Positions 12,341-64,000 of a stretch of DNA of 64,000 nucleotides are shown in pieces. The position numbers were made by a program, and so were the translations under genes. The stretch spans positions 28,770,001-28,834,000 of the forward strand of contig NC_086097.1 in the NCBI RefSeq assembly GCF_963921235.1. The letters are read 5' to 3'. The stretch's first letter is position 1; the number at the start of each line of letters is the position of its first letter. A model generated the notes under the pieces. That model made no database searches and was not told where the DNA came from. It was given only the letters and a program-made list of their open reading frames with translations. Source of the DNA: Mobula hypostoma (Eukaryota).

Positions 12341-12349
12341 GCGGGGGTT

Positions 12350-24899: not shown

Positions 24900-24935
24900 A
24901 GTCGACGTTTCAGGCCGAGACCCTTCGTCAGGACT
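24900..24935 (-). ncRNA. Minimal type I hammerhead ribozyme motif (PLE-associated)
   Basis: Minus: AGTC-CTGACGA-AGGGTCTCGGCCT-GAAA-CG-TC-GACT; stem I AGUC/GACU, intact core, GUC cleavage triplet, palindromic ACGU in place of helix III. Confidence 0.8.
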
Positions 24936-26022
24936 AACTAAAGGAAGAGTGAGTAAGAGACTTGAAAGTTGGAGGGGGAGGGGGAGATCCAAAATGATAG
25001 GAGAAGACAGGAGGGGGAGGGATGGAGCCAAGAGCTGGACAAGTGATTGGCAAAAGGGATACGAGAGGATCATGGGACAGGAGGTCCGGGAAGAAAGACA
25101 AGGGAGAGGGGGAACCCAGAGGATGGGCAAGGGGTAGAGTCAGAGGGACAGAGGGAGAAAAAGGAGAGTGAGAGAAAGAATGTGTGTATAAAAATAAATA
25201 ACAGATGGGGTACGAGGGGGAGGTGGGGCATTAGCGGAAGTTAGAGAAGTCGATGTTCATGCCATCAGGTTGGAGGCTACCCAGACGGAATATAAGGTGT
25301 TGTTCCTCCAACCTGAGTGTGGCTTCATCTTTACAGTAGAGGAGGCCGTGGATAGACATGTCAGAATGGGAATGGGATGTGGAATTAAAATGTGTGGCCA
25401 CTGGGAGATCATACTTTCTCTGGCGGACAGAGCGTAGGTGTTCAGCAAAGCGGTCTCCCAGTCTGCGTCGGGTCTCACCAATATATAAAAGGCCACTTCG
25501 GGAGCACCGGACGCAGTATATCACCCCAGCCGACTCACAGGTGAAGTGAAGCAGGATCTCCCAGTGGCCACATATTTTAATTCCACATCCCATTCCCATT
25601 CTGACATGTCTATCCACGGCCTCCTCTACTGTAAAGATGAAGCCACACTCAGGTTGGAGGAACAACACCTTATATTCCGTCTGGTAGCCTCCAACCTGAT
25701 GGCATGAACATCGATTTCTCTAACTTCCGCTAATGCCCCACCTCCCCCTCGTACCCCATCTGTTATTTATTCTTATACACACATTCTTTCTCTCACTCTC
25801 CTTTTTCTCCCTCTGTCCCTCTGAATATACCCCTTGCCCATCCTCTGGGTTCCCCCCTCCCCTTGTCTTTCTTCCCGGACCTCCTGTCCCATGATCCTCT
25901 CGTATCCCTTTTGCCAATCATCTGTCCAGCTCTTGGCTCCATCCCTCCCCCTCCTGTCTTCTCCTATCATTTTGGATCTCCCCCTCCAACTTTCAAATCT
26001 CTTACTCACTCTTCCTTCAGTT

Positions 26023-26058
26023 AGTCCTGACGAAGGGTCTCGGCCTGAAACGTCGACT
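26023..26058 (+). ncRNA. Minimal type I hammerhead ribozyme motif (antisense to host gene)
   Basis: AGTC-CTGACGA-AGGGTCTCGGCCT-GAAA-CG-TC-GACT; predicted cut after 26054. Confidence 0.8.
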
Positions 26059-26288
26059 GTACCTCTTCCTAGAGATGCTGCCTGGCCTGCTGCGTTCACC
26101 AGCAACTTTGATGTGTGTTGCTGTAACCAAAGGTACTGTTTCTGTATGATTCTCTATCGACAACTCCATGACCTAATAATATTTTAGGCTTGGGAGATGC
26201 CAGCCCAAAATGCAGATATGAGGGCATGCTCAACCCCTGTGGATATCCCAAGTGAGTCTTACATACTTTTGATCATATTTGTACTTAC

Positions 26289-26366
26289 CAGTTCCTGTCT
26301 TTTGTCATCATCTGTGCTATCGTCCGTTAACTGTGCAAAAAGTTCTGTCAGGAACTTCTCATCTTC
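26289..26366 (-). CDS. PPP4R3A: PPP4R3A/SMEK1 coding exon (probably exon 5), 78 bp
   Basis: [29 protein letters not shown] acceptor, GTAAGT donor; in frame with both neighbours. Confidence 0.96.
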
Positions 26367-27269
26367 CTGGAAGTTGTTAAAAAGAAATGCAAGATACACT
26401 AAATAAACAGACAGAAGTCCACATCTAATGTGCAGAACTGGGCTTTTTGTACTGCAGGAGAAAATACACAGATACAACAAGCCTACATGACCATGACTAA
26501 TTCAACGCTGAGAAATACATTTATATTTCAAAAACGATAATCAGTGTTATCATAGATTCTATCATTCAATGCAATAAATAAGTTTGACCATGGATGTCTA
26601 GTTCAGTTAGTTATATAGATTTTCAATTAGATTAATTTAGAAATACACTGAAGTCTACTTGCATACAAACAGGTAGGGTAACAGCAACAATGAAGTTACA
26701 AGCCTGAAATGAATTTAAAAAAAGTGATTTTTGAGAAATCAATTAAAAAAACAAATAAGCACCAACATAGCCAAATTATCATAGAGTACTTTCATTAAAG
26801 CTTATTTTTGGAAACCGGCCCTCTTCACCTGGTCCAGTTTACGTATGAATGCATGTGAACTTTGTTTGAGACAGCTAACTGACAAACACACAAGTAGGTG
26901 GGATTATAGTCATGGTACAAAGCAATTACATATTTCAAGAACAGCCAATTATGCTTCTACTGCACTTGCTAATAGCTTTACATATTCATTAATTAGCAAA
27001 TCCAAACTTGAGAATATACAGTACTTCAGATTTTATAATTATCCATGTTGCTCAGTGCTGTTGTTATGATTTTAACAAAGTTCAATAATGTGAGAGAGAT
27101 TGAGAGAAAACAGAAAAGAAAAATATTCATATTACGTTCATTTATTGCATATAAAACACTCAGCAAAACAAATTGTTGATTTTGTTTCATGCAACTATAG
27201 GCAATATTATGTGACTGAGGAAATTTCTAATAGGCAAGAATAAACAAGTAATGGTGGCTGGTAATTTCG

Positions 27270-28092
27270 GAAGGAATTAAAGCTATGGTTGGGGAGACTC
27301 CTTCGAGCTCATCTGTAGAAGCAGCTCTGATGTCTCTCTTTTTCCTTTTCAAGATGGATGGTGCTCTGTTGAAGACCCTGACCTAGAGCTACATTCAAAC
27401 CTCCGATTTTTGATATCCCAGGTAAGCAGCCTAGAAGATGAGTCCACCTCTGGGGTTCCGAGGCTTTGCGGTCCTGGGGATGAGCCGATTCTCTGCCGGT
27501 GCTGCTGAATGAAACATTGCGGGTGAAAATGGAAAACTGGGAGCTCTGTACTCAGCAAATCCCACATTCTCTCTCTTTCTCTCATTGGTCAAAAAGAGTA
27601 TGTTGCCGATTCTCGAGTTGGAGAACTTTGGGGGGGGGGGGGCGGTGGGAAGTCATGCAGCGAAGTTTAATACCATAAATCAGTAGGTTGTTTGTCTTTG
27701 TGGGTCTCCCCTCTCACTGTGAAATGGGGGCACCTCTCTGGTCCCTTTATTAGGGAGAGAGAGAGAGAGAGCGCCTGTGGTATGTTGAATTGCTGGGTGA
27801 ACAATTAGTTTTTGTTATGCTGCAGATCACATCTTTCTGGGATCTTTGCTTGGTGCGTGGAGGGTGCTGATGCTTTTCTTTGTTGATGTAAGTGGGGGAG
27901 GAGGAGAGTCAGTGCTTTGCTGCTGCTTGTGCATGATGAACGAGTAAGGGGATGCCTTTGGGGTTCTAACATTTGTACTGTCATTCAACCTTTGGGGCAC
28001 TTTTCTGTTCTCGTCGATTTCTACGAAGAACAAGAATTTCAGGTTATATATTATTTACATTTTCTAATATTAAATGGAACCATTGAACTATT
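27270..28092 (+). repeat. Non-autonomous retroposon-like repeat with G-run, (GA)n tract and the shared 3' tail
   Basis: Its 3' about 220 bp is homologous to 12350-12603 and 31710-31950; no coding capacity seen; 5' boundary approximate. Confidence 0.55.
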
Positions 28093-28147
28093 TAGTTTAG
28101 AAATGCATGAACTTATGTAAGTCTAAGGCAAAGGTTTCTGCATATCA

Positions 28148-28285
28148 TAAACACAAGAGATTCTGAAGATGCTGCAAGTATCCTTGGAGCAACATAGCCA
28201 AGTCAGGTAGCAACTATGGAGGGGAATGAATCATTGACATTTTAGGTCATTCTGATGAAGGGCGTCAGCCTGAAATGTAAACGTG
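28148..28285. mobile_element. Decayed short Penelope-terminal fragment inverted at the hammerhead
   Basis: AAACACAAGAGATTCTGAAGATGCTG..TTGACATTTTAGGTC | TCTGATGAAGGGCGTCAGCCTGAAATGT. Confidence 0.65.
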
Positions 28286-28627
28286 TCAGAGCACTCACAG
28301 CCTTCTGATGAAAAGAATTTCAAAGGTACATTCTAGTTAAAAAAAGATTTCCTTACCTCAGTCTCAGACAGCAAAATTCTTATTCTGAGAATAGAAGAAG
28401 CAGTCTGATATCTACTCAGCCAATCCCTGTCTATGTCTCAGAGATTATAGAAACTACATGTAATAGGGAATGCATATAATTCTTCCAAAAACTTGGTGTA
28501 GGCCAATCTCAATCTCACTTCATCAGACAAGCCTTGAATTCAGAAATCAAAACAACAAATTTAAGCCACACTGAATCCAAAGCAAATGTTTCTTTTGTTT
28601 GAATTACGGAAACAAAAGTTGCACAAC

Positions 28628-29178
28628 GAACATAGAACATGACAGCACAGTACAGACCCTTTGCCCCACGATATTGTGCCTACCTTTTAACTTGATAGCA
28701 CCCTTCCCTCCCACATAACCCTCCATTTTTCTGTCATCCATGTGCCCGAGTCTCTTTAATGCCCCTAATATATCTGCCTCTACCACTTACCCAGCAGTGT
28801 GCTTCACACACCCACCACTCTGTGTAAAAAAAAGATACCTGATATCCTTTCCTCCAATCACCTTAAAATTATGCCCCCTTCTATTAGCCATTTCTGCCCT
28901 GGGAAAGAGGTGTTGGCTGTCCTCTTGAACTATGCCTCTTATCATCTTGTACACCTCTTTCAAGTCATCTCTCATCCTTCTTCGCTCCAAAGATAAAAGA
29001 TCTAGCTCACTCAATCTATTCTCATAAGACATGCTGTCTAACCAGGCAGCATCCTGACAAATCTCCATTGCTCTCTCTCTAAAGCTTTCACATCGTTCCT
29101 ATAATGAGGTTACCAGAAATGAACACTATGTTCCAAGTATGGTCTAAACAGAGTTTTATAGAACTATAATATTACCTT
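28628..29178 (-). mobile_element. CR1 LINE 3' fragment
   Basis: ORF 28787..29068 SYENRLSELDLLSLERRRMRDDLKEVYKMIRGI. Confidence 0.9.
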
Positions 29179-29388
29179 GCATATATAACCACAAATAAAT
29201 TAATTCTTGCCAATGCTTAGTACTCCTTTGGGAAAGCTTGCTTACTTCTGAACTTCTCCAATTCACCTCACACTAAAACGTATTTCAATTCACTTCACAG
29301 AATACAGTTCTGAAGATGGTTGCCCTACAGGCAGACACTGTAGCTGTATTTCACACAAGGTACAGAAAACAGACAGAATGACTGGTCA

Positions 29389-29583
29389 CAAACAACAGGA
29401 ATTCTGCAGATGCTGGAAATTCAAGCAACACACATCAAAGTTGCTGGTGAACACAGCAGGCCAGGCAGCATCTCTAGGAAGAGGTACAGTCGACGTTTCA
29501 GGCTGAGACCCTTCGTCAGGACGAACGAAAGGTATCGGCCTGAAACGTCGACTGTACCTCTTCCTAGAGATGCTGCCTGGCCA
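29389..29583. mobile_element. 195-bp Penelope-terminal insertion folded back at the hammerhead, 14-bp TSD
   Basis: Arms about 29459-29516 and 29525-29582 are reverse complements; AGAATGAC(T/C)GGTCA at 29375-88 and 29584-97. Confidence 0.92.
29488..29523 (-). ncRNA. Minimal type I hammerhead ribozyme motif
   Basis: Minus: CGTC-CTGACGA-AGGGTCTCAGCCT-GAAA-CG-TC-GACT; core intact, stem I 3 bp. Confidence 0.7.
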
Positions 29584-29834
29584 AGAATGACCGGTCAATC
29601 TGATAACTAGCTGTAAAAACACAGAATACTGACTGGGGCATGGAGAAGTTCAGGCTTCTTTGAAACTGTCAGTTCAGAAATTAGAGACATTTATGAAGGG
29701 ACAAAATGTGATTTTCATTATTCACAAAGGACTTCTGGTAACACAGCTAAATCAACAACCAAATTATATCTCATTCACAGGATTTAGCTTGAGGGATGCT
29801 GTTCATATTAGAATAACTTATAGAACATCACTGG

Positions 29835-30504
29835 GAAACTTTTTGGAGAGATATTTTCAATATTATTTCTAAGGTATTAAATATAGATATCTCTCCTCAC
29901 CCTATTACTGCTACCTAAAATTTCTAGTAATCTTTCCCCTTCAGCCCGTAGAATGATTGCATTTCTTACTTTAATGGCGAAAAGATGTATTTTACAACAT
30001 TGGAAAGAGCTTAATGCTCCAACTACCTTTTTTTGGTTTTCTCAGACGATTTTATGTTTGAATCTGGAGAAAATTAGAAGTAACCTTTATGATTCTTCAT
30101 TTAAATTTGAACAGATTTGGGGACCTTTTATTCGATATTTTCATTTAATGTAATATTTACCCTTCTTGTTTTTTTTTCACTGTTTTAATGGAGGTCGGGA
30201 TTGAGGACGTGATTTTAAGTTTAACTCTGTTTGGTTTCAAGTTAGCCCATTGCTTTGCTTTGCTTTTAGTTAGTTGCACGGGGGGTTTTTTTTGGGGGTT
30301 TTTTTTTCTTTTTTTCCATTGATATATATAAAATCTAGTATACTATTATGTTATCTTGGTTTCTTATGCTTAAATTACATTGTTTGTAGTATTTTCTTTT
30401 TGGTATTGTTATCTTTTGGAATTTTATTATACTTTAACATTGTATTAATGTTTATATGGCTTACCTTTTTTGTATACTTACTCAATAAAAAGATTTAAAA
30501 AAAA
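29835..30504 (+). mobile_element. 5'-truncated L1/Tx1-clade LINE 3' end with poly(A) and 11-bp TSD
   Basis: ORF 29953..30153 AKRCILQHWK..LNLEKIR..KFEQIWGPF (fish-type L1 ORF2 C-terminus); T-rich UTR; AATAAA at 30484-89; A tail; AACATCACTGG at 29824-34 and 30505-15. Confidence 0.88.
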
Positions 30505-30764
30505 AACATCACTGGCGAAGCTTTAATTACTGACTGCTTGAAGATAGAGGTTTATCTCTGTGATTTTTGTTACTGTATCTTGAAGTATCAAATTAAAAAG
30601 ACTTGTACTGTTGTGAATACTTTTGCAACAGAGTGCTAGAGGACCACAGCATAGAAACAGCTGTTCCAACCCATCAGTCTGTGACAACCCGTTTTCCTGC
30701 CTAGTCCAATCTACCTGCACCCGAACTCCAGCACTCCATACCCTTCCCATTCATTTACCGATCC

Positions 30765-31029
30765 AAGGAAGGAAAGGTACGTTGCATCTGGAGTTTCTCC
30801 GGTTAGCAGACGATTTCCCTCCATGCCTCTCTGATGTAGTGGGGAACCGCGTACGAGACAAGTTACAGCAGTGGTTTGCCACCGCCTTCTGCTGGGTGAG
30901 TTTCCAAAGGGATCACCAGCTTGTAACCCAGCACGGATGGAAAGCGTGCAGAGAGCCGGCTGGCTGGATTCGAACTCGGGACCTTTCGTCCCAAAGTCTG
31001 GCGCTGATGCCACTACGCCACCAGCTGGG
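30765..31029 (-). mobile_element. tRNA-derived SINE with intact Pol III A and B boxes, inserted in an old CR1 3' fragment
   Basis: Minus: A box TGGCGTAGTGG (31010-20), B box GAGTTCGAATCC (30966-77), tail ACCTTTCCTTCCTT; CpG-rich. Confidence 0.85.
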
Positions 31030-33382
31030 TCAAAACTTCACTGAAATGCATCTTTCCCGCGCCCCCCCCCCCACCAAACTTCTGCTGGTAGCTTATTTCA
31101 CACCAACTCATGTTCCATTAAATACCTCACTTTTCATACTAAGCTTATGACCCAACCTGAAGGGAAAAAGTCTACATGTACTTACTTTATCTGTACCCCT
31201 TATAATGTTGTATAGTTCTAGAAGATCAACCTATCTCTACAACTCAGGTCCTCAAGCACTGCAAACTTATTAATCAGCCCATAAACAGTATTGATCAAAG
31301 ACCTCCAATCAAACAAAAGCACCCCTGTGCCACCACCTTCTCTCTATGGCCAAATCAATTTGAATCTAATCTCTTCGGTTACTTACTGAAATAGTATCCA
31401 CTGATCTTGAACATTTTTTTAAAAATGTTAAAAATATAGCAGGGAACAACTAACTTTGACAGCACGTGCAATGTTGCACAGATGAGCTGTAACTTTCCCT
31501 TCAAGTACTGAACTATGTGCAAAAATTACGAAAATCAACGGCAGAAGATTCTTGATAAGGAAGTAAACACCTAAAAAGCCACGAGCCAGAGGAAAAACAT
31601 GCTTTTATAGAAATATTACTGCATTATGAGATTTTGCAGACACAATGTTCTTCACTATTTCATCAGTTGATTAAGAATAGTAGATCAGGACTCTTGAATT
31701 AATAGGATCGTTACTGCTTGCTTAGTGGGTGGAGGGTACTGATGCGATTTTTTGTTGAAGTAGGGAAAGGGGAAGGTTGTTGCTTTGCTGCTGCTTGTGC
31801 TGGGGACGGGTGGGGGGGGGCTTTAGGATTCTAAAGTTTTTACTGTCACTCATCCTTTGGGGCCCTCTTCTATTTTTATGGATGTCTGTGAAGCACAAGA
31901 ATTTCAGGTTGTATATTGTATACATTCTCTGATATTAAATTGAACGATATCACCACCAATTATCTCAAGAAATCTATGCATTAGCTGTTTTGTAAAGCCT
32001 CAGCAGCCTTGACACTATGGAAAATTAATATTTTTCTTGATTTCATAATTCAAATATATTATTGAAAGGGAATCTACAAGCTAAGCAACTACACATATTG
32101 TTGTTTACGAAAGAGACACATTCCTGTTAAGTCTCTTCAACACTTTCATTGTCAAAAGTTGAATAAGACCAGGCTTAACCCTGTTTTCTTTTGTAAATGC
32201 ATACAGCACCCAATCAAAACAAAAGTTAAACTGATCTGTCATTACTCCGAAAGAATTTCTTTTCAGGATGTCTTAAAGCTCTTAATAGTCAGGGAGTGTT
32301 CTCTGAAGTCAGAATGATAGACAACCAACTTTAGTGGTACTAATTATGGTTTTGGGATGCATGCTGGTCAAGGAATAAGAGCATCAGAATTGGGAACAGC
32401 ATCTCTCTTCAAGTCTGCATATTCACATATCAAAATACTGGTTCCATTTTGCTGAACTATTCACGTAAATTTCTGAATACAAAGAGAACTAAGGTTCATT
32501 TATTTTGAATAAACTATATAATGGAGCCACCACAGCTATCTAGGGTAGAGATTTCCAAATATTTGCCAAATAATTCACTTCTTCAGTCCAAAATGGCCTC
32601 CCTTATACTGAGACTATCAGCAGGTTTAACAGTTTAACAATTATAATACTAAAATACCCAAGAATAACATGTTCAAATAGTGCACCAGTGGTTAAATATA
32701 ATATCTAACAAGTTTGGTTTTAAGAACCACTTAATGGGGGGAACAAAACATATTTTTTCAACTAAATACTGGGATCAATTATATTAAGTTTACTTTCAGC
32801 ATAAATGAAGCCAGATGCCAGAATATTTCTCAGTTTAGATATCAGCTGGATACGTACACTCCAAAGGCAATGTTGTAAATTTGGATAATTTTGCATCATT
32901 TATGCATAATATAGTTCTCAAATTCTGGTCATTGTTACCATAAAACTTTATACATTTTACACAGTAATGTGAGGCTTAAGATGAGAAGTTGGCTGGAAAA
33001 AGCAAGGTTAATAAAAGGCAAGTACATGAATTATACATTCTAACCATGAAAGGTGTACATTTTAAATTTTTACAGAAAGCAATTAAATTTTGTAAAATGG
33101 TGATAAAACTGGTAATTCTAGATGACATGACTTTGGATCCATTGCGGTGTCTTTTTAAAATTGGTTATGGGAAGTTCTCAAGGAACTGGAGTACTAGCAA
33201 TGCTGTCAGATAAGATTCTGTACAAATATTCAAGTTTTCCTCTCCTCAGGTGAGCACAACATATCACCTTTGTTTAGCAGTCAAAGTTCCATGTTCCAGA
33301 TATTAGTGTTTCTCTGTTCAGCTATCACCAATCCTCAAAAACTAAGGATGTTCTTTAGGCAAAAGATGTAATACTGTAATAT

Positions 33383-33800
33383 CTACAATAATAGGTTGAG
33401 CAAGTTAGGGCTATTTTTCTTGGAGTGAAGGAGAGAGAGATGACTTGACAGAGGAGTACAAGATGATAAAGAGGCATAGACAGAGTAGATAGCCAGGATT
33501 CCATCACCCTCTCCCCGACCCCAAGGGCAGAAATGGCTAATACAAGATGGCATAATTTTAAGGTGCTTCAAGGATATCAGAGGTGTTTTTTTTTTAAAAC
33601 TAGAGAGTAATAGGAGTTTGGAACATGCTGCTAATGTTGGGGGCAGAGGGACATTTAAGAGACTCTTAGATAAGCACATGGATGAAAGAAAAATGGAAGG
33701 CTAAGGGAAAGGAAGAGTTAGATTAATCTTAGAGTAGATTAAAAAGTCAGGACTATATTGTGAGCTGAAGGGTCCGTACTGTACTGTGTTCTTATGCTCT
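33383..33800 (+). mobile_element. CR1 LINE 3' fragment (decayed)
   Basis: RLSKLGLFFLE..YKMI.RGIDRVDSQ remnants and CR1 3' UTR. Confidence 0.8.
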
Positions 33801-35087
33801 AACTCACAGAATATTATTGCTCAGGCTGCATCATATAATGACAACAAATAACAAAAGCATCAATAGTGCTGTGGCCCAGATCAATAAACAATCTAGGCCT
33901 GTCCATTCCACTGGATATGCAAGCTCAAATTATGGATAGACTGATCCTCTACTCCTGGACCTACAAGTAAAATATTCTTCCTGAGTCAATCATCTTCAAC
34001 CCTGAGGGATAGTCAGTGAATGAATGATCAATTCATGTAACTAACTTCAATAAGTGAAGGATAGTTTAGTCAGTCAGTATAGATGAGAGATTAATTTTTC
34101 AAAGTTCTATAGGACAGAATCTTTCTACAAGCCCCTTCGGTAGCCAGGAGACTATTCATGCAAGTTAGCTGCTCAATTTTATACTCCAATCCAGACTGGC
34201 TCTTTATTATTTCAATGTAAAGTACTGAACTACTAGCAAGGCAATCTGATGTTTTCTAATGAGTACCAATCTCCTCAGTCCACACCAAACTGCTTACGAC
34301 AAATCAAAATTTGAATTAATAGACCAATAATCCGCTCTCCCATTCTCCCGCTTCCATAAAGTTCAGCTCAACCAAATCATTGACTGTCTGTCCCGTCAAG
34401 TTGCAAACACCATTATTAGTGACCTAGAAATGCGAGCAATTAGTCTCTCTTCACTATTAATTGCACCACATCAGAACCTGACCCTTCCCTCCACCTTCAA
34501 CCCTTCACTGAAGGTCTTGTTTAAAATTTCTTATGAAAGTTCTTTGCGAACTTGCCTTTGCACGACTCCATGATGTCTATAACTTTTCCATGTTGGTGCG
34601 ATGGCCAGTGAGGAGCAAAACCTCATGTTAAAAAAAAATCAGCAATCTTTTGAGGATGTGCATATACATAGAACAGCACAGCACAACGTTGTACCAATCT
34701 TGATGTCAAATTATACTAAATGTCCTCCTCCTATGTATCATCCATACCCCTTAAATAGGTTAAAAAGGGATAAATTTTATGTGGCTTCTCAATTTAGAAT
34801 AAATGTGCAAAAATTGCGTTACTATTGTTCAAGATAAAAATTTGCACTGATATCAATACATGCCTCTGGTGTTCTACTTTTAATTTAACAGCACAAATTG
34901 GGCTCAATATTCATGAAAACCATTACTTAATTCCATAATTAAAACAGATCAAAATGATCACTCCAGAGTAAGCTTGAAAAAACAAAAATCTGCATTTGCA
35001 TTGCTGAGTGTTTTAAGCTTGATTTGAAAAGGTTTCACAAACATCGTATTAAAGTCCAGTGAAATAACTGCAAGGAAACCAGCATCA

Positions 35088-35810
<723 letters not shown>

Positions 35811-37192
35811 TTAAAAGAAGGATGCAAGAGGTAACAACATTCATTGTGACAAGAATATCAACTTAGAACACAACTTTGGTTACCCTGTTACAGGAAAGAC
35901 ATTATCAAACTAGAGAGGGTGAAGATGAGGTTTATGAGTAAGCTATCCGGACTCGAGGGTCAGGGTGATAGACCATCCATTACCAAGGACTTCTTTAAAA
36001 GGCAATGCCTCAAGGCGGCAGCATCCATTTTAAGAATCTAACCACTCAAGACATACCCTCTTCTTGTTGCTACCATGGGAGAGGAGATACAGGAGCCCGA
36101 AAACATACACTCATCGTTTAAGGAACAACCTCTTCGGGTTATTGAATTGTGGGCATGCTATGTTGGTGCCGAAGAGAGGCTGCCCCCAACACATTCCTCG
36201 CTGATTTGATTTAACACAGATGACACATTTCACTGTGTTTCAATGTTCATATGACAAATAAAGCTATCTTCAACTTTATCTGTTTAATTGACCATTACTG
36301 TTCACATCTGACTAAGTCTGAAAAGCTTTAATTTGATTATGGTTATTACATGCCTTCACCCTCTACCCCAACACCTCCACTTCACAAATGTAGCTTGTGT
36401 ATAGCTTCACCAGGTTCACAGCTCATTTCTAGGCATCTCTGGTACCGCATTCCTTATTGAATATAATGGTATACTGGGCTACAACTCTATGAATTGCAAT
36501 GGTGTATATTTCTGCTGCAGCAGATCGCCAAAAGCATCAAAGATGGGCAATTTTGAGTCGGTCTCATTTAAAACTCCAAATTTTTTTTTCTTTAAATGGA
36601 GGGTGCTCTCTGAAAAGAGAGGACGTTGCCTCAACAAGGACTGTGCTGTGGGGTCACTTCTTCCAGTGCTGTCATGAACAAATTCAAGTGCCACAAGAAG
36701 TCTGGCAAGGCCGAGGTCAAGTTGCTTTATGCGTCACATTGAATTATTCACATACAAACCAATTTCAGACATGGTGTTCTGCAGGATTGGCTAGAAAAGT
36801 CAGTGGTGACACTACCAAGTCATTCTAGGTGATGGATTCTAACATTCCCTCATACAAAAATACATTTCACATCCTTGCCACTTCCTGAGTTATTCATTGT
36901 ACATGAATAAGAAACAACATAACTACAAATTTGGCAGAATAAGTTAATTTTATTGGAAACACATTTCAACAAATTTAAACTTTAAGTTAACTACTTCTTC
37001 CAAAATCTGTAAAATGACCAAAGCAGACTTATTTACAAACTTGCACAGGAAAAAAACAATCCAGTTGTGGTGTCAGTGTATATTATAGGAAGCAATTTCT
37101 TAGCATAACATTTTGTATTTCAGTCCATTTACTTTGTTTTCGTTAGCTGTACATATTATATCCTACCACAGCACTATTTACTTTGAATATGA

Positions 37193-38413
37193 TACTACTT
37201 CTTCTTCATGTGCCTTGCGCTTTACACGCTTGGGTGATCATAGCTTTCCACATCAAAAATTGTGTTCCTAGTTCCTCTATCTTGCAGAGTCAATGATTGT
37301 GTTCCTAGTTCCTCTATCATGCAGAGTCAATGATATCTCGCACACTTAGATCTGTTGGCTCTTTCAGTTTCCATATATTTTCTTCTTTGCCTTCCTCTAC
37401 TGCGTTTCCCAGGCATACGGCCTTGTAATGTAAGGCATTCTATCTCTCCCTTTCTGATGACATGGCCCAGGAGTTTCCTCTCATTTAATGTTTCATTAAA
37501 GATCTTCTTGTATGGGCACGTTGGAGTACTGTCTCATTAGTTACCCTATCTCTATATAATATTTTCAGCATTCTTCTAAGAAACCACATTTCTGTTGCTT
37601 CTAAGTTTCTTTGGAGTTCTGGTGTTATAGTCCATGTTTCAGAAGCATACAGCAAGATTGACCAGATGTAACATTTTAGTAGCCTAAGCCTTGTTGTCAT
37701 AGAAATGTGTCTGTTGGAAAAAATGGGTTTCATTTTTTGGAAGTTGGTTTTGGCAATGGCAATTCTTCTTTTTATTTCTACTTTACTTCTAGCATCTTGT
37801 GATGTAAAGCTACCAAGGTAATTAAAGCTGATCTTTTGTTCAATCTCTTGGTTACCGATGTACAATTGGCAGTTGGGAGTATTCTGCTGTTTTGATATTA
37901 CCATACATTTGTTCCCCCCCCCCTCACAGTTGATGGTTAGACCAAAATCTGCACTTGTTTGTACTACTTTGTCTAGGAGGATTTGTAGGTCTTCTGCAGC
38001 ACTTGCTATTAGGGTGGTATCGTCTGCATATCTTATATTGTGGATGATAACACCTCTAATTTTTATCCCATCTAGGTCTTCTATTTCTCTGAGAATCATT
38101 TCACTATAGATATTAAACAATTCCGGTGAGGCAACGCATCCCTGTCTAACTCCTCTTTGAATTATAGTCCAACTGCTTATACTATCATCAATTTTTACCA
38201 CTGTCACTTGGTTCCAATATAAATTCTGAAGCAGTTGTTGGTCCCTTCCGTCAATGTTTAGTTTAGTGAGAATTTGAAATAATTTTTCATGATGCACTTT
38301 GTCGAAAGCTTTAGTGAAATCAACAAAACATAAAAAGACATTATTTTGATATTCAATTGCCCTTTCTGAAAGCATTCATAGTATAAAAATTGTGTTCCTA
38401 GTTCCTCTATCTT
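37193..38413 (-). mobile_element. 5'-truncated RTE-clade LINE
   Basis: ORF 37485..38375: FVDFTKAFDKV, GVRQGCVASPELFNIY, RYADDTTL, LLYASETW; (GAA)n-type tail at about 37193-37207. Confidence 0.93.
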
Positions 38414-39069
38414 CAATAAACCTATATTGTAATTTAGAGGTTTCTGACCTTAATATAATACAATATATCATAATTAGTTAGAAATGATCTGAGGTCATTA
38501 GTTATTAAATACTTTTGAAAGGTAGTGAGTGCTATAATGTTTACAAACACAAACTAAACAATTACTTTATGTTCTGTTAGTAAATTTATGAATTCAGTTA
38601 ATTGCTTATGGCCTCTTCAGTTCATAATCTCATCCAAAAACAAAATTCCTACAGAACTTCAATGAATGCCATTATCAATTTATATTCTCAAATTCTAGAA
38701 TGCTGTTGAAAATGAAACATGTTGGCTAGAGGGAAGAACGATGCCGCCTGAGTTATGCCAAAACTATCATTTTGAAATGTGTATTTCCTTATCACATGCT
38801 TCAAATTCAAATTAACTAAATTCGTAGGTTATCATGCTGTGGCTAAATACAAGAAACTGCTTACCATTTGTAATTAGATGTGAAGTCATTGCCAATTTCT
38901 CCACTGGTGCCAGAGAGAAAATGGGTACTATAAGATAACCCAATAACCAGGACTGAACATGTAGGATAAGAATTTCAGTTGTACCATTTTTCAATTATGA
39001 ATAGTGCCACAGCCACGATTTACCACCCATCTAATTTCCCCCAACTCCAATCCATTTCAAAAGGCCAAT

Positions 39070-39693: not shown

Positions 39694-39716
39694 AGGCCAA
39701 TACTATTCAGTTAACT

Positions 39717-46600: not shown

Positions 46601-46603
46601 ACC
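46568..46603 (-). ncRNA. Minimal type I hammerhead ribozyme motif
   Basis: Minus: GGTC-CTGACGA-AGGGTCTCGGCCC-GAAA-CG-TC-GACT; stem II GGGU-cucg-GCCC. Confidence 0.78.
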
Positions 46604-46681
46604 ATGATGCTCCTTCCACCATGCTTCACAGTTGGGAGGAGGTTTTGGTGTTGGTGTGCAGTGCCTTTTTTCCTCTAAATA

Positions 46682-52460: not shown

Positions 52461-52596
52461 TGTTCTTGCAACCGTAGACAGAGTAGATTTATTTCTCCCC
52501 ATGGAAGAAATGGCTAATATTAGGGAGTATAATTTCAAGCTGACTGGAGGAAAGCATGCGGGGGGGGGTGGGTGGAGGATGTCAGAGATTTTAAAA

Positions 52597-52633
<37 letters not shown>

Positions 52634-52640
52634 CATACAG
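52597..52640. repeat. (CA)n(TA)n compound microsatellite within the host CR1 fragment 52477-52840
   Basis: ACACACACACACACACATATATATATATATATATATACATAC. Confidence 0.9.
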
Positions 52641-55600
52641 AGAGTGGTGGGTGCATGGAACGCATTGCCAGGAGTGGTAATAGAGGCAGATACATTCAGG
52701 ACATTTAACAGACTCTTGGATAGGCAGATGGATAACATAAAAATGGATGGTTAGTTGGGAGGGAAGAGTTAAGTTGATCTTGGAATAGGTTAATAGGTCT
52801 GCACAACATCATGGGCTGAAGAGCCTATGCTGTTCTCTGTCCTAGCTGCAATGCTGCTTTATACCACTGACTGGAGTTATTTCATATATGGGGAAGCTTC
52901 CCCACTACATTCATGTTTGGGGGTGGGGGTGGGGAGGAGAAGAGAAGAGATCTTACTAAGGTAAATCACTAATGCCTGCTCACCTGAGAAGTAAATATTT
53001 TCAGAAGACAGTATGAAGAGTTTTTATAAAAATATATTTACTTTTACACGTTGTACGGTTACATAAAGGTGAGTCTGGGAATATGATTCTCATTGGTTAG
53101 TTAAATCAGCCATTCTGAGCATAATTTAAACTTCTCATGTTGTTTCTAACCAAACAACTTCATTAAATCCTTCACATCAGCTACAGTTCAACCAATACTA
53201 CTACACCAAATAAGATACTCAGCAGATACAGAATGTTTACTTTAAAAGAGTTAGTGCAATAAACTTACATTCAAAACTCTTAAAATGGTGTATACCATAG
53301 TAATATGCAACAATTCTTGGACACGGGAAGACAAAAGCACTGGGGCATTCTTGATGAAAATAAACAGTGCTGAAAATAGCCATTACATCATTCTACACCA
53401 ACAGCACCATTTTGTTATTTCAAAGTTTTATTACTGTAATTAAACCTACTCTTGTTACAATTTTAGCCCATGTCATAAATTTCTCTTCCCACCCCACCCA
53501 AACCTACTCATTTATTATTTTTTAAACAAAGAGTAGAGCAAGGTGATGTAGTCATAAAGAAATGAATGCCCTTTTTTTTTTGAGCAGAAAGGCCACTGCA
53601 CAGGTACAGTTTCTACTCCACTGGCCGAAAAACAAATCTTTCAGTATCAGGAAGAATTTACTGCCTTGCCACACTTCCCCACACGACAGCATGTTGCTGG
53701 ACCACCTTCAGGACCATTGAATTAATTTTGTGCATTCATTCCTCTAGAACAGCCTTCACGTCCCAATTTCCTACTTCACCTGGGACAGATTCCTGGGCTT
53801 TGACTGGTATTGCACATTCAAAGTAGTTTATACAGGGGGCTGCTGAAAACAGCCAGATGAAGTGGGTCTCGATCAGTAAAAAAAAAGAGATTAATGATCA
53901 AGCTCAGGTCTCATTGCCAAGATTGCTGTTCAGTAATGATCATAAACTACTGGATGAACCACAATCTTCAAAGGACAGAAGGGGACATAGGCACTGAATG
54001 GTCCATCACAAAGTCCATCAAAATACTCAACAGACACCATAGAGGACATCTTAAAAAGGTAGCATCTATCATGAAGGAACCTCATCACCTAAGAACTGCA
54101 ATCTTCTTGCTACTACTGTCTGGGAGGAGGTTAAAGGTCTGAAGACCCACACACAATGAATCAGGAATAGCTCCTTCTCCTCTGTTATCAGACTTCTGAA
54201 TTGCCCATAAACCTCATTGTTCCTCTTTCTGCAGTATTTATTTTGTTATTTATGGTAATGTTACACCTTTGCCCTGTACTGCTGTCACAAAAGAACACAT
54301 TTCCATGTCATATATGCCTGATAATAAAGCTGATTCTGAGGGCAGGAGATACCTGATGGTGCAGGAACATGAGCAGCTTGTGAGGTTAATATGGAAAAGC
54401 CGTCTGCACTGACTTGCAACTTGGCAGCAAGATAAAGAATAACTACAAGATAATTAAAAACCACGAAGAGTCAAGGTACTCTACATATATGCATAATATA
54501 AATAAAGTCATGAAAATATTCCCCACAGAATGGTAGAAGTCACTGCTCCTCATTCATTAAAATTGCAATCTCAATAATCTATCTGATGAACCTACCACAC
54601 AGTCTCCCAATCACAATATGGTAGAATAACTTAAAAAATTTAAGAGAGACGGGTCAGCTTCAACTCAAGGAGTTGATGCTGGTAGAGTGGGCCAGGTGGA
54701 TTGAGCTGTAGCTATTTGATTCTAACTGTACCTAATAGAACCACAACCTTCAACACAGATCTGTAGCTGGAACTTAAATCTATAGTGTATCATTTAAGTA
54801 ATAATTCTGAACCTCTTCTTTGGATGTGGTTTTCAAAAATACCCTACCAAAAGCAAGATATATTTAAGCCAGAACAGTGGTATTAATATTGAAAACTAAA
54901 CTTTATTTTCAGCAGCAATTGACACCTATGATCTTTACAAAATGTCACACTTTGCAGAGCAAATTCAGACTTGGATGAAAACAAAGACAGGCTGTCGTAA
55001 TTGATAGCCTGGTCACTGAGGATCAATGGAATTCCCAATTCTAAAATAAATGTATTACATGCAGTTAATCAATACTATTCTCAAATTAAACCTCTTAATT
55101 TGGAATTTACAATATTTTGGAAAGTTAATGCCAAAGAGGAATACTGTGTTCAGAAAAACATTGAATAAAAAGGTCTTTGGTATTTGGGTGTCACTACATT
55201 AGCACGATTAAATTAAAAAGACAAATTGAATAACAGGCAATTTGTAAAATTTGTACTTTTAGCACATTTTTAAAACTTATATATGGGGTTATGAATACAC
55301 TGGAAACAGTAATATTCAGAGACAGCATGTAACCAGTAACGTAAGTAGAAGTGGGAGTAAGCTATTTGGCTACATGTGTCTGATTATGCTATTCAGCAAT
55401 GTTATAGCTAATTGTTTTCACCACCCTGACACTTTGCTGCACCAACTCCATTTCAAGTCCTTTAATACCTACAACTCATTTTCTGGAATATGTCCAGTGA
55501 CTTTCAATTAATTGCAAAGATTTATTACATTCTGAGTGAAGAAATCTCTTTTCATCATCTTGAATGGATGCTCTCTTTATTTTGTACATCGTGATTCCCA

Positions 55601-57769
55601 GTTCCAAAAGGGAAACATCAACCACACATCAACCTAGTTAACCCGCTTAAGAATTACGTTTCAAGATCATCCCTTATTCTTTTAAACTCAAGAGTGCTCC
55701 ACCTCTCCTCATCCATCAAAACTGCAATTCCAGTAATCGATCTGATGAACCTGCTGCACATTCTTTCTAATCACAAGTAGATACTTCCTTGGGTAGGGAG
55801 GCCATACCTGCCTACAAAATTCCAGATAAGATCTTACATGGCCTCATAGAACTTGAATAATATCTCCACTTTTGTACTCCAAGTTCCTTCAATAAAGACC
55901 AATATACTGTTTTCCATCCTAATTGCTTGCTGTATCTGCACATTAACATCAGGGATAGATACCAGAGTCCCTCTGAAAAGCAATACTTTCTAACTAAAAG
56001 AAAACATAAGAAAGTAATTTTTTCTTCTATAAAAAGTGGATAACCTCACATTTAACACACTACATTCAATCTTTGGAATTCATATTCGGTTTTATTATAT
56101 ATAGCTGTACTTCAAGAATGTTGCTGTATGCAACAGGACCAAGTAACACAAGATCTATTGACTACTGGAAGTAGCCAGAATTATTCTGCACAGGAAAAGA
56201 ATACCTTGGGAAAATTTTACAGGCATTAGCCGACTGCTATTTTTATTATTTACATTATTAAATCTAAAGGATAATAGATAAAAAACTGCCACATGGATCA
56301 AAAGGGAAGTTGCACTGGCAAAACTGAATATCCAATGAATGACATTATCAGCTTGGAAGTATAATTTTCTATTTTATATCTAAGACACCATTAACTTGAT
56401 CTCCAATACCAAAATAGCCATCTTCTGCATAAAACTACAGAAGGTAGAAATTAGGTACAAACCATTATTGGTAATTATATTTAATTTGGTTCACACTTCT
56501 GGGTAGCAACACAGCATAAGTCCTGCCCTAGTTGCTCTGAGGGAATGAAGTGTTAAACTTCATAATTTGGACTTCCATAAATGCATAGACTTGACTTATC
56601 CAGAAATCTTTGAAGGGCATCAATGAATTTCAAATAAGCATTTACTTAATTCAATTTCACAAAGTCAATGACAGATTCTAAATTAATTCCAGCAAGCTTC
56701 TGTAGTTTCCTTTAGATTCAGCCCAGGAAATATAACCAGAAGAAATAACTTTGCTCCACAGAATTGCTACATTACTTGATTTGAGTCCATTCCACTCAAT
56801 GATGAGGAATGTCCTGTTATTAATCCCAAACTTGCCTTCAATGAGCTTAAACTCAACAGCATTTATCACATTCTCACAATTTAAAGAGTAATTAATGAAC
56901 TAGTTCCAGTGGTCCCCACTGTTGATAGTAACGCCAATTCAAATCCCCGTTGAATTTAAATTCAGCTAAACAAATACATCTATAAATTTATACACACAAC
57001 AGTATGTTCATGGCCATGCATATTATAGAAATTTACTGAGAATTCACAAATCGCTAATCAAATCTGAGTTATGGAATAAATTTCGTTCTCACAGAATTTA
57101 AGTGAAAAAAGACTTTTTTCTAACTTGCGTTTCTTGACACAGGAACAGATGACATGGACTTGCGTAACGTAAAATCATGATACAAACTATTTTCTAGGAC
57201 CCACCATGACGCAGGGTATGGCAAGTGTGAGGAATAAGTATTTATTAAGAGTTTGATTTAAAACTACATTAACCTTGTGCAATAGAGAGAAAACTGGCAT
57301 CTAAAAAATCAAAGGAGGCGAGACTCCAGCTGCTGGCATACACGAGGAAGTGTAAATAGTAAGATTTTTTGTAGGAATTAAGTAGGAAGTAGAGGTTGTT
57401 TCTTGGAATGGAGGCTGGTGACTAGTGGTGTGCTGCAAGGGTCGGTGTTGGAACCCCATTTTCTGTTCCACAGATGATAAACTTTACAATAGAATCCTCC
57501 AGTGTTATATATAAAAGGCCAAGACTAAATAATGTGGTCTACCAATTCACCATAAAAATAGATAATTGTATTTAATAGGATTTGATTAAAATGGTATTTG
57601 CAGCAATAATACAAAATCAGCACCTTGTTTTTACCTAAATTAACCATTTTAAATGCAATATTGAGCTCTTATAAACAAGAGTCTGAATTTGACAATAATC
57701 CACAAAATTAGTTAGGACGAAATGTGTGAATACAGCTTTTCAAAAAAAGTAATGGTACAAACTCCATCA

Positions 57770-57886
<117 letters not shown>

Positions 57887-59699: not shown

Positions 59700-59707
59700 C
59701 TCTAGAG

Positions 59708-61710
59708 TCAGAGTACTACAGCATAGATACAGGACTTCCAGCCCATCAAGTTCATGACAAACTATTATTCTGCCTAATCCCAGCAATTTGCAGCTGGAAC
59801 ATAGCCCTCCATACCTCTCCCATCCACGTATCTACCAAACCTCCTTTAAATGTTGAAATTGAACTCATATCCACTATTTTTGCTGGCAGCTTGTTTCACA
59901 TATGCACCACCCTGAGTGAAGATGTCCCCCCAGCCCAGGTTCCCCTCTAGTTCTTAATTCTCCAACCCTGCAAAAAAGACTGAGTGAAATATGATTTTAG
60001 ACATCTCTATAAGATCACCTCTCAGACTCCTATGTAATATAAAATAAAAAATTTTGCGCATCAATCTCTCAAACTCAGTTACTCACGTCCTAGCAACATC
60101 ATTTCTGTACTCTTTCCAGTTTAATAACAGGGCCTCTTCAGCATCCAGTACAACTCGCCATGATCTTCAAACTGTTATACTCAATGTACTGGCTTATGAA
60201 AGCCTTCAACACCACCTTGTCTGGTTGTGACTCCAATTTTCAGGGAACCACGTACTTGCATTCTCAGGGTTCCCATGTTGCACAACACTTCCCAGGCCCT
60301 GCCACTCACTGTGAGATTCTTACCTGGACTTGACTTTCCAAAATGCACCTTCTACTCAAGACCACAAGACCATTTGGCCCATTGAGTCTGCTCCACCATT
60401 TCATCATGGCTGATCCAATTTTCCTCTCAGCCCAATATCCTGACCAATCAAGAATCGAATCAAGCTCTGCCTTAAATATACATCACATCTTGGCCTCCAC
60501 AGCTGCCCATGGCAAAGAATTCACAGGTTCATCATCTTCTGGCTAAAGAAATTCCTCCTCATCTCTGTTCCAAAACGAAGCCCCACTAATTATGAGGCTG
60601 TGTCCTCTGGTCTGAGACTCATTGGAAACATCCTCTCCACATCCACTCTATCAAGGCCTTTCACCATTTAATACGTTTCAATGAGGTCATCCCTCATTCT
60701 TCTGAATTCTAGTGAACACAGGCCCAGAGCCATCAGATGCTCATCATCTGACAAGCTGTTCAATCTTGGAATTACTGACATGAACTTCCTCTGAACCCTC
60801 TCCACTTTCAGCATAAGGGCACCAAAACTGCTCACAATACTCCAAGTGAGGCCTCATCAACACTACATCCTTGCTTTTATATTCTAGTCCCCTTGAAATG
60901 AATGCTAACAATGCATTTGCCTTTCTCACCACAGACTCAACATGCAAATTAACCTTTAGGGAATTCTGCACAAACACTCCCATGTCCCTTTGCATCTCAG
61001 TTTTTGTACTTTCTCTCCATTTAGACAATAGTCAACCCTTTCATTTCTTCTACCAAAGTCCATGACCTTACACTTCCTGATGCTGTATTCCACCTACCTT
61101 CTTTGCCCATTCTCCTAATGTGTTTAAATCCTACTGCAGCCTCTCTACTTCCTCTAAACTACCTGCTCCTCCACCTATCTTCATATCATCTACCAACTTT
61201 GCAACAAAGCCATCAATTCCATCATTCAAGTCACTGACATATAATGTAAAAGGAATCAGTCCCAACAGATGCCTGCTGTACACCACTAGTCACTGGCAGC
61301 CAACCAGAAAAGGCTCCCTTTATTCCCAATCTTTGCCTCCCACCAATCAGCCACTGCTTTATCCATGCTAGAATCTTTCCTGTAATACCATGGACTTGTA
61401 AGCTTGTTAAGCAGCCTCCTGTATGGCACATTATCAAAGGCCTTCTGAAAATCCGAGTGCATGACGTCAACCAATTCTCCTCATCTAAGTCAAACTCCAT
61501 TTGCAATTTCTTGAACTTCTTAGCTGATCAAGACCCCCTGTAATTTAATAACTTACTTTATAATTTGTAAGTGCCACTGAAAATTTACTAAACTTACCCT
61601 GTATATTCTTACCAATCATTGATTTAGATGACAAATAGCAATAGGCCCAGCACCTACACTAGGAACACCACTAGTCACAGGCCTCCAGTACAAGGAGACA
61701 ACCTTCTGAA
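59708..61710 (-). mobile_element. Cluster of nested CR1 fragments (younger copy about 60360-61480 inside an older one)
   Basis: ORFs 60744..61028 (RPHLEYCEQFW), 61231..61506, 61286..61474 (DFQKAFDNVPY). Confidence 0.8.
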
Positions 61711-63497
61711 TGCTAAATTTGCTTCACCTTCTGAGGCAGTAAGGTGCTGGTGTGCTTACTTGGCTATAGTGTTTACATGGTTAGACATTGGTTATGCTTA
61801 CATTTAGGTGTTGAAGGAGATGCTTACAGACTGGGCAGGTGATTGGTTTCAGAGATGGGTGCATTTTTCTGCAACTTATTCTAGGCTCTGGTGCATACTC
61901 AATATTATCTCTCTGACATCCCAACTGTTCCCTAAATACTTTTGAATAATCATAGGCCAGGAATGCCAAAAAGTCAGTAGGGGTGGTTCACTTTTTCCAA
62001 GGAGTTATTGAAAGCATCCTTTATTTGTTTCACTACCGATATGGTACTGACATCAATTTGTATACCCTGCCTGCAGATTCTAGGAATCCACATCATACGT
62101 ACAGCATTGGTATAATTTTTCCAGTGCTTTGAGATGCCCGAGAGTAGTCCAAGTCTCAGAGACAAATAGCAGGGCAGAAGTCACTGCTGCCCAGTAGATC
62201 ACAAACCTTGTGCCAGGTTTGGAGGTCTCAGTTACATACTTACATACTTCCTCAGATGACCAAAGAAGGCAATGGTGAAGTTTATCAATGATATTTGGAT
62301 TCACTGAAAGACAATTCCTAACACATGAGAAGTGGATCACATTTTCCAGGATGAAATATAGACTTGAACTCTGGTATCTCAGATTAGAATTTTAATACCC
62401 TATTGACCAAGTTATGAAGGCTCTAAGACCAAGTTTTGGGCAGCTGAAAGCAAGGCCTATAATTAAAAATATAATGTTGTAATATTAAAGTACAAATCAA
62501 AACTATTAGAAAACTGCACGAGAATATTAACATTTACTTCACTGAAAACTTAATGAAAATGGCATACATTAATGCACTGAAGTCAATTACATTGTCATCA
62601 GCCTAGCCAAAAACATTTTTTTTTTCACATTTGTTGATGGGAAAAGAGTTGACAAGTGCAGAGTACAGACAAAACTGCACAAGTAAGCCCCAAGACTGAG
62701 AATGATTGCAACATGTAGTGCATCCTTCCTTTTCTCGTCCCTCTTAAAGCTGAAACTACCTTTTAGAACCCTTCCTCAGCTCTCCCTTCAATGTTACCTC
62801 TTCTTTTCCCTCACCAAAGAAAACGTTGTCAGGATAGAAGTATAATCAGTATTTGTTTGTGGGTTGCATCACTGCCAACAGTGGGGCAAAGATGCGACCC
62901 AAAAACAAACCAGGAATGTAGAATAGAACACAAGTATTGGAATGCAGGAACTTGACTTTAGAGGACAATACATATGATGTGAACTTAAAACATTATTAGC
63001 TGAATAAGGCACCAAACTTACTATTGGCCCAATCAAGATTTAGAATCAAAGTGTTCTCCTTTTTAACATTAAAAAAAAGATATTCTATTATTTGCTTACT
63101 GTGCAAGTTAAGCTGCAATATGAGATTCTTTTCCCAGTCCGTATTCTTCAAAAATTAATCACTTGCCAGCTCAACTAAAATATACCAGTAGACTTCCTGT
63201 GAGCTAAATAAAAAAGTTTTATATAAGTGTAAATAATGTGCTGGAACATCTTGATTTTAGTACTTATATTAACTCATTTAGTTTTGTTAATAGTACTTGC
63301 TGAAATTTAAAATTTGATATTTAATTTTACTAAATGTCAATTTTTTAAAAAATCAAATATAGGTGAATATTTGCTTGGAAATTCTGATCCTTCTTGAGTA
63401 AAACTGTTTGTGAACCTATGTTGTACCAGTGACACTGGTGGGGTTTGTGCAACACAGCAGACCCAGAAAGAAGATATGATAATATGTTTAAAAACGT

Positions 63498-64000
63498 AAA
63501 CAACAGGAATTCTGCAGATGCTGGAAATTCAAGAACACACATCAAAGTTGCTGGTGAATGCAGCAGGCCAAGCAGCATCTCTCGGAAGAGGTGCAGTCGA
63601 CGTTTCAGGCCGAGACCCTTCGTCAGGACTAACTGAAGGAAGAGTGAGTAAGGGATTTGAAAGTTGGAGGGGGAGGGGGAGATCCAAAATGATAGAAGAC
63701 AGGAGGGGGAGGGATAGAGCCAAGAGCTGGACAGGTGATAGGCAAAAGGGATACGAGAGGATCATGGGACAGGAAGTCCGGGAAGAAAGACGGGGGGGGT
63801 GGGGGGGACCCAGAGGATGGGCAAGGGGTATATTCAGAGGGACAGAAGGAGAAAAAAGACAGTGAGAGAAAGAATGTGTGTATAAAAATAAGTAACAGAT
63901 GGGGTACAAGGGGGAGGTGGGGCATTAGCGGAAGTTAGAGAAGTCAATGTTCATGCCATCAGGTTGGAGGCTACCCAGACGGAATATAAGGTGTTGTTCC
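63498..64000 (-). mobile_element. Young Penelope-like element (terminal region plus end of GIY-YIG ORF), runs off the window
   Basis: Nearly identical to 24806-25307; encodes EQHLIFRLGSLQPDGMNIDFSNFR*. Confidence 0.93.
63595..63630 (-). ncRNA. Minimal type I hammerhead ribozyme motif
   Basis: Minus: AGTC-CTGACGA-AGGGTCTCGGCCT-GAAA-CG-TC-GACT, identical to 24900-24935. Confidence 0.8.

Follow-up and report, generated by a model that had tools for sequence, protein, structure and literature searches.

Do hammerhead ribozymes that a retroelement has carried into the introns of a host gene cut the transcript of that gene? The question is raised by a 64,000-nt stretch of the Mobula hypostoma genome (assembly GCF_963921235.1, contig NC_086097.1, positions 28,770,001 to 28,834,000 of the forward strand), which we call the window and in whose numbering positions are given. 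A first-pass annotation of its letters had placed intact minimal hammerheads of a young Penelope family in the sense strand of the PPP4R3A pre-mRNA and had suggested that several monomers in one long transcript could pair, cleaving nascent RNA or releasing retroposon RNA. With considerable confidence we read the motifs as minimal hammerheads of one very abundant Penelope-like element (PLE) family, whose intronic copies are most likely inert passengers in the host pre-mRNA. Their location within PPP4R3A is incidental, this gene having no special place among the sites of the motif.

The motif is the 34-mer GTCCTGACGAAGGGTCTCGGCCTGAAACGTCGAC (GTCC..GTCGAC). It occurs without mismatch at 24901-24934 (-), 26024-26057 (+) and 63596-63629 (-), and with one mismatch each at 29489-29522 (-) and 46569-46602 (-). 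These are the five places at which an intact core had been reported, and all five matched, compared with 0.00 matches expected from 100 dinucleotide-preserving shuffles. The bare core CTGANGA-N8-20-GAAAC recovers the same five window sites only (0.66 expected), and in 5/5 intact copies the core boxes CUGANGA ... GAAA ... UH stand in type I order. Read directly, helix I consists of AGUC/GACU with one additional U.G pair, C3 to A9 read CUGACGA and are followed by a 13-nt helix II segment, and the 3' box (G12 A13 A14 A15.1) reads GAAA, after which come C15.2 G16.2 U16.1 C17 with no loop. A loop-less, self-complementary palindrome, ACGU, thus replaces helix III, so that this helix can be formed only between two copies. 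An extra A follows A9 in every copy examined; if it is the unpaired nucleotide typical of PLE hammerheads, helix II has a CUCG loop and 4 bp, including two wobbles. The G10.1-C11.1 pair is present in one of the five window copies (the C variant), and the other four have G.U. Cleavage of the 24900 copy is predicted between 24904 and 24903 on the minus strand; this is the position given by the first-pass annotation and it agrees with hammerhead numbering, and the full core and the palindrome without a helix III loop likewise read as described there. The motif is the known minimal, helix-III-less type I hammerhead of PLEs.

The Rfam hammerhead models (type I, type III, HH9, HH10 and type II) gave no match at the gathering score in the whole window, and none at E<=10 on 24780-25020. 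This miss is expected since the models include helix III, and we take it as a limit of the models rather than as evidence against the motif. All eight degenerate copies listed earlier (2210+, 5945+, 8040-, 11480+, 16330-, 18985-, 28250+ and 45145-) could be aligned locally to the motif and its flanks and are genuine relatives of it. The changes in their cores are mostly of the CG>TG/CA type.

What element carries the motif? In alignment the five intact copies share one element, which ends sharply on the 3' side about 100 nt past the motif and is truncated to varying degrees on the 5' side. More specifically, the tailed, 5'-truncated copy at 24806..25548 (minus strand, host sense) covers -649..+98 relative to the cut site in a BLAST comparison with a longer copy, and holds at 24900..24935 a minimal hammerhead of the T variant (G10.1.U11.1), assigned by core reading and by its match to the 34-mer. 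On the 5' side of this motif lies a C-rich 3' untranslated region of about 330 nt, preceded by the end of an open reading frame (ORF; 25231-25548, minus strand) whose last 105 residues match the Pfam GIY-YIG domain (E=1.4e-6, 28.9 bits vs a cut-off of 22.6). Two longer genomic copies contain single ORFs of 700 and 631 amino acids in which RVT_1, the reverse transcriptase (RT) domain, is followed by a C-terminal GIY-YIG domain. This architecture, RT plus C-terminal GIY-YIG, defines canonical PLEs according to two sources (PMC8557442; PMC11167929).

The other intact copies belong to shorter pieces of the same element. Head to head with the 24806-25548 copy stands an inverted, 5'-truncated and tail-less partner at 25549..26122 (plus strand), the arm of which ends at +68; its hammerhead, at 26023-26058 (+), was found by 34-mer match and is antisense to the host. 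The inverted arms, 24836-25416 and 25549-26122, are 97-98% complementary over about 580 bp each, with 132 nt between them. A short tailed 3' fragment at 29389..29532 (minus strand, sense; extent -40..+103) has its hammerhead at 29488-29523 (-) with one mismatch (G11.4>A) and a helix I of only 3 bp, and is abutted by a short inverted arm at 29525..29582 (+), recognized by alignment, with which a hairpin over the hammerhead is predicted. At 46477..46602 (minus strand, sense) a short solo 3' fragment begins at the hammerhead (extent -30..+95); the motif, at 46568-46603 (-), has the canonical G10.1-C11.1 pair of the C variant and matches the 34-mer with one mismatch. The last copy, 63500..64000 (minus strand, sense; -403..+100), is cut by the window end and has a hammerhead with no mismatches at 63595-63630 (-).

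The ends of the copies provide a second line of evidence. They were compared in a sample consisting of genomic loci L001-L078 plus the window, from which three overlapping loci were dropped. The 3' ends form two classes about 35 nt apart, at about +65 (tail-less) or about +100 (tailed); 45 solo copies have the tail, 27 lack it and three end otherwise. Head-to-head pairs combine one tailed (~+100) and one tail-less (~+65) arm in 26 of 28 cases, and the tail/tail combination was found in 0 of 28. The inverted, 5'-truncated partner often abuts the 5' end of the insertion, and among the first 100 exact T-variant sites listed there are nine (-,+) pairs less than 1 kb apart and no (+,-) pair. Both features are on record for PLE insertions, and for a related element two internal RT start sites and the extension of both strands have been described (Frangieh et al., 2024; PMC11167929). 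We dropped the tail/no-tail asymmetry as a new observation, since Craig et al., 2021 (PMC8557442) already report that the PLE tail is often at one end only. Judged by its RT and GIY-YIG ORF, its tail signature and its inverted partners, the carrier is identified as a canonical, endonuclease-bearing (EN+) PLE, and the Penelope origin proposed by the first-pass annotation stands. On this reading the window copies are 5'-truncated and dead on arrival, each inserted into an intron of the PPP4R3A orthologue, and two of the insertions are accompanied by the inverted, head-to-head partner that is typical when PLEs integrate.

How special is this locus? The genome-wide descriptor count that the first-pass annotation had suggested as a check returned 104,277 core-intact matches in the 3.48-Gb genome, compared with 1,680 for the reversed control. 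This corresponds to a mean of 1.9 core-intact motifs per 64 kb, against five in the window that stem from four insertion events, and the window exceeds the genome-wide mean by a factor of no more than about 2.6. The idea that the local density is special is not borne out, the motif being spread genome-wide. Within two mismatches the 34-mer has 95,579 genomic matches, evenly divided between the strands (47,784 forward, 47,795 reverse).

Both the structure of the motif and its dispersal agree with those published for the minimal hammerhead ribozymes of metazoan PLEs (PMC4209133). Like these, the motif is a type I hammerhead with a full core, no helix III loop and a palindrome at 15.1-16.1 (ACGU), has a short helix I (3-5 bp) and an extra A between A9 and helix II, and lies in the terminal non-coding part of an element encoding RT and GIY-YIG. 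In both cases thousands of copies are dispersed and mostly solo, with opposite-strand pairs 100-700 bp apart. Helix II has 4 bp here (two wobbles, CUCG loop), whereas the published examples have 6-8 bp; the dominant subfamily has G.U where the published G10.1-C11.1 is called 'highly conserved'; the copy number, about 10^5 with an intact core, is roughly tenfold higher than the 2014 counts of ~4,000 for coelacanth and ~9,000 for Xenopus; and a single sequence family is seen here (100/100 matches listed), whereas the published set comprises many covarying families. That PLEs carry minimal type I hammerheads linked to dimers had been called established, and it is indeed in Cervera and De la Pena, 2014 (PMC4209133). 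On PLE hammerheads of elasmobranchs we found general genome papers only, and a similar fish motif may stand in the supplementary alignments of PMC4209133.

A second relative is PAc, the Poseidon PLE of Anolis carolinensis (PMC11167929). In both elements the hammerhead precedes the ends of genomic copies by about 100 nt, and the 3' end takes either of two positions that differ by 30-40 nt (the 'tail'); PAc uses both DNA strands, which fits the head-to-head pairs observed here. The PAc ORF starts inside the hammerhead, whereas here no long ORF lies downstream and the motif stands about 330 nt past the ORF stop. PAc has been characterized biochemically and the present family is known from sequence alone. 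The motif class is already published, and the copy number, the change between subfamilies and the signatures of insertion all fit what has been reported on PLEs.

We next turn to the host gene, as its strand and exons decide what a transcript would contain. Pfam PP4R3 (PF04802) matches exons along the minus strand of the window, and tblastn with the skate PPP4R3 protein places the gene, a PPP4R3A/SMEK1 orthologue, at 4977..57886 (-), with exons at 57785-57886, ~35160-35770, 26283-26372, 22557-22673, 19792-19908, 7481-7642 and 4977-5159 (all minus strand). For the large exon, identity reaches 99% with a skate PPP4R3, 98% with Callorhinchus 'SMEK homolog 1' and 96-97% with P4R3A of tetrapods, and the earlier identification of the host as PPP4R3A is thereby supported by Pfam, by tblastn and by best named matches of 96-99%. 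The best protein matches also point to a cartilaginous fish as the host organism. Host exons continue beyond the window on both sides, and the one that encodes residues 53-66 is situated some 6.2 kb upstream of the window. This placement makes all five intact motifs intronic and, as the gene is on the minus strand, four of the five sense and one antisense, just as the first-pass annotation had it. No two of the four sense copies share an intron, and the distances between them are 4.6-17 kb. When all 13 window sites are considered, 8 are sense and 5 antisense, a bias that is not significant.

The end of the 25549..26122 copy lies 161 nt from the exon 26283-26372; the inverted repeat 24806-26122 thus begins 161 nt downstream of this exon, and in the modeled pre-mRNA it may offer a double-stranded RNA (dsRNA) substrate. 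About 9 kb upstream of the window end, the locus L021 (8901-9126) contains a head-to-head mini-pair of the same PLE with its tailed arm in host sense, a pair that is intragenic only if the 5' coding exons (residues 1-52) lie beyond it. On another contig, a second gene with the PP4R3 domain and a similar exon layout is found at G000:C22:57920667-57977319 (-) and is probably the PPP4R3B paralogue.

Would the sense copies cleave the transcript in which they lie? According to the first alternative, sense intronic hammerheads pair within the PPP4R3A pre-mRNA or in trans and cleave the nascent transcript, with lower output or released retroposon RNA as the result. Four core-intact sense copies in one transcription unit speak for it, as do the dimer mechanism published for minimal PLE hammerheads (PMC4209133) and the possible abundance of motif-bearing RNA from so many genomic copies. 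Folding predictions argue in the other direction. In the predicted fold of 24780-26130 (-), the 24900 motif has 34/34 nt paired, its partner being the antisense motif on the plus arm, in a hairpin of 1351 nt with arms of about 580 bp and an energy of -1240.6 kcal/mol. Of the 29488 motif, 27/34 nt are paired with the short arm inverted to it, in a fold of 231 nt at -143.6 kcal/mol. Two copies are thus predicted to be locked in hairpins; the two others, 46568 and 63595, have no local inverted arm, which favors cleavage, yet they lie 17 kb apart in different introns.

Even a free pair is not predicted to adopt the catalytic form readily. Nearest-neighbour energies are -12.7 kcal/mol for the canonical double hammerhead, compared with -32.7 kcal/mol for the extended self-duplex and -24.4 kcal/mol for two monomer hairpins, which leaves the catalytic dimer fold about 20 kcal/mol less stable than the competing duplex. 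The competing folds pair the core GACG with the CGUC at the cut site, and the pair probability of helix III is 0.0000. These energies, which are ground for caution and not proof, agree with the literature on low or protein-dependent cleavage: minimal PLE hammerheads did not cleave as monomers and were weakly active as dimers (Cervera and De la Pena, 2014; PMC4209133), in the anole PLE the hammerhead needed the protein of the element in order to cut, and no anole RNA-seq reads ended at the PLE hammerhead cut site (PMC11167929). Harmful cleavage would moreover predict an antisense bias, and the 8 sense and 5 antisense sites of the window do not display one; nor does the modest excess of motifs over the genome mean set the gene apart. 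We therefore give very little probability to cleavage of the PPP4R3A transcript by its own intronic hammerheads. The suggestion that the local density lets monomers pair in one transcript fails on the distribution over four introns, the two hairpin-locked copies, the 17 kb between the free ones and the disfavored dimer fold.

A variant of this alternative brings in the element's own protein. By analogy with the anole element, a burst of this protein could switch on trans cleavage of many long pre-mRNAs, that of PPP4R3A included, a scenario that we regard as extremely improbable. If it were true, retroelement activity would be coupled to a genome-wide attenuation of long genes, and the inverted pairs would supply long intronic dsRNA. 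In the reading that we prefer, that of passengers in the pre-mRNA, the hammerhead would serve the element, in the processing or folding of its RNA, probably together with the element protein and as a dimer.

Several points weigh against the passenger reading or the PLE identification on which it builds. The main or tailed arm is in the sense orientation in 4/4 young window insertions and in L021 as well, that is in 5/5 cases (two-sided p ~0.06), a trend that is not significant. Nearest-neighbour energies ignore tertiary contacts in the core as well as help from proteins or chaperones, and the active fold may be more accessible than they indicate. The copies at 46568 and 63595 are unsequestered and, with about 10^5 copies in the genome, trans pairing with motif-bearing RNAs may occur. 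On the side of the element, the RVT_1 matches in the 700- and 631-residue ORFs (E ~1e-5) score 25.6 and 24.6 bits, below the Pfam cut-off of 29.6, and direct tandems of pseudo-long terminal repeats (pLTRs) were found in none of the three long copies examined, each of which breaks off on the 5' side at about 2.1-2.2 kb. Direct reading or calculation gave the motif, the number of its copies, the element around it, where in the introns it lies and which competing structures are predicted; we infer that significant cleavage of host RNA most likely does not take place.

Two other known classes of dispersed hammerheads were considered and rejected. Non-LTR retrozymes (Cervera and De la Pena, 2020; Li et al., 2026, a preprint) likewise have type I hammerheads related to PLE termini and form non-autonomous short copies, about 43% of which overlap introns in Xenopus. 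The present copies differ from them in being dispersed or inverted rather than in head-to-tail tandems, and in having neither a helix III nor loop-loop contacts. Within the window the copies are separated by 1.1-17 kb and some of them are inverted, and close same-strand pairs are rare among the genome sites listed, which led us to set the retrozyme reading aside. The amniote intronic ribozymes HH9 and HH10 (De la Pena & Garcia-Robles, 2010) resemble the window copies as sense hammerheads in an intron of a protein-coding gene; they are single, orthologously conserved, canonical and recognized by Rfam, whereas the window copies are recent repeats that Rfam does not match. An exapted intronic ribozyme was rejected in turn, as these defining features fail and we saw no sign of host-level conservation.

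If the hammerheads do not act on the host, are they kept for cleavage in the element? The two subfamilies bear on this point. They differ at motif position 11.1 (window position 24912), where the older C variant has the canonical G10.1-C11.1 pair and the younger T variant has G.U through a CpG transition. Exact copies in the genome number 36,060 for the T variant and 5,457 for the C variant, and the next 58 nt differ by a pairwise median of 6.9% among T-variant copies (n=28) and 12.1% among C-variant copies (n=30). By its lower divergence the T subfamily is younger, besides being more numerous. The family is 'young', as it had been called, only in this relative sense. The most successful lineage is accordingly predicted, from base pairing, to carry a slightly weakened ribozyme helix. 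Among the 100 genome matches listed, G10.1-C11.1 is found in 28 and one helix II family in all 100; the common variants U11.1/C11.1 and G11.4/A11.4 keep pairing, yet they equal the expected CpG transitions. Assembled-read contigs of four organisms contain both letters at 11.1, the C accounting for about 25-45% of the depth.

Conservation of the core above the flank, which had been set as a test of function, was not observed. A 34-mer of the 3' flank has 132,044 genomic matches within two mismatches and is commoner than the motif itself. The hammerhead is thus not preserved better than its flank, as would be expected under neutral decay of a CpG-rich motif.

The 5' ends of the copies are informative as well. 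We compared 52 3'-anchored copies, incidental copies in the genomic loci and the window, with BLAST end points accurate to about 10 nt. Only one of the 52 has its 5' end within 3 nt of the cut site, and no sharp peak of 5' ends stands at the cut site itself in this set, which argues that cleaved RNA is not the usual template for new copies. The proposal that the short copies are complementary DNAs of hammerhead-cleaved RNA was rejected on this count. The 5' end or inversion junction falls at -75..+30 of the cut site in 38 of the 52, with a sharp drop in density beyond. Because of this clustering near the hammerhead, most copies are only about 100-180 bp long.

This clustering invites another explanation for the persistence of the motif, namely that the element keeps the sequence mainly as a quasi-palindromic rod or dimerization module, with the hammerhead core secondary or vestigial. 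Such a rod would join two element RNAs or a dimeric RT-endonuclease, or would assist the template switching behind head-to-head insertions. Besides the position of the 5' ends and junctions, it would account for the predicted stability of the monomer hairpin (-12.2 kcal/mol) and of a 38-nt self-duplex (-30.3 to -32.7 kcal/mol), for the weakening of G10.1-C11.1 to G.U in the younger and larger subfamily (distance 0.069 vs 0.121), and for the finding that mutants of the anole hammerhead left insertion in vitro unaffected (PMC11167929). However, PLEs throughout the eukaryotes retain the complete core, and those of fungi and plants include canonical forms that are active (PMC4209133), and the C3G/G8C rescue in the anole element demonstrates real ribozyme chemistry (PMC11167929). 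The clustering of 5' ends is broad, measured with ends accurate to only about 10 nt, and poor processivity of the RT could explain it. We consider a primarily structural role unlikely, and retain the reading of the motifs as PLE hammerheads carried along by an abundant element.

The finding is mainly ordinary, a published class of ribozyme in incidental copies of a hyper-abundant retroelement. Its modest value is that of a resource: an unusually large set of about 10^5 nearly uniform minimal hammerheads, clean PLE insertion signatures and a subfamily with a relaxed G10.1-C11.1 pair. Such a population is usable for asking whether PLE hammerheads are selected for cleavage, a question that the literature (PMC7761336) still calls open.

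The remaining relatives of the element in the window are old or decayed. On the plus strand, an old copy at 1731..2321 is 68% identical, with a decayed hammerhead near 2213-2240, and another at 11082..11601 consists of pieces that are 72-84% identical, with a decayed hammerhead near 11480. Also on the plus strand are a very decayed relative of the motif together with its 3' flank at 5928..6009, whose alignment score of 40 is the lowest of the eight, and a decayed hammerhead fragment identified by alignment at 28241..28287. The minus strand holds a decayed hammerhead fragment at 8029..8076, again recognized by alignment; an old short 3' fragment at 16237..16350 that starts within the hammerhead and is missing the CUGANGA box; a decayed hammerhead fragment at 18955..19017 with CTGATGA and a mutated GAAA box; and a short 3' fragment at 45050..45181 whose hammerhead has a replaced or decayed 5' half. 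In six-frame translations only, ORF fragments resembling the RT or endonuclease of long interspersed nuclear elements (LINEs; e.g., '...FQKAFDKVPH...') were seen at ~50500-52310 (-), ~9070-10115 and ~60670-61530 (-). A further ORF fragment (1301-1720, plus strand), which immediately precedes the old PLE copy at 1731-2321, has what we take to be a resemblance to the C-terminal region of fish L2-type LINEs.

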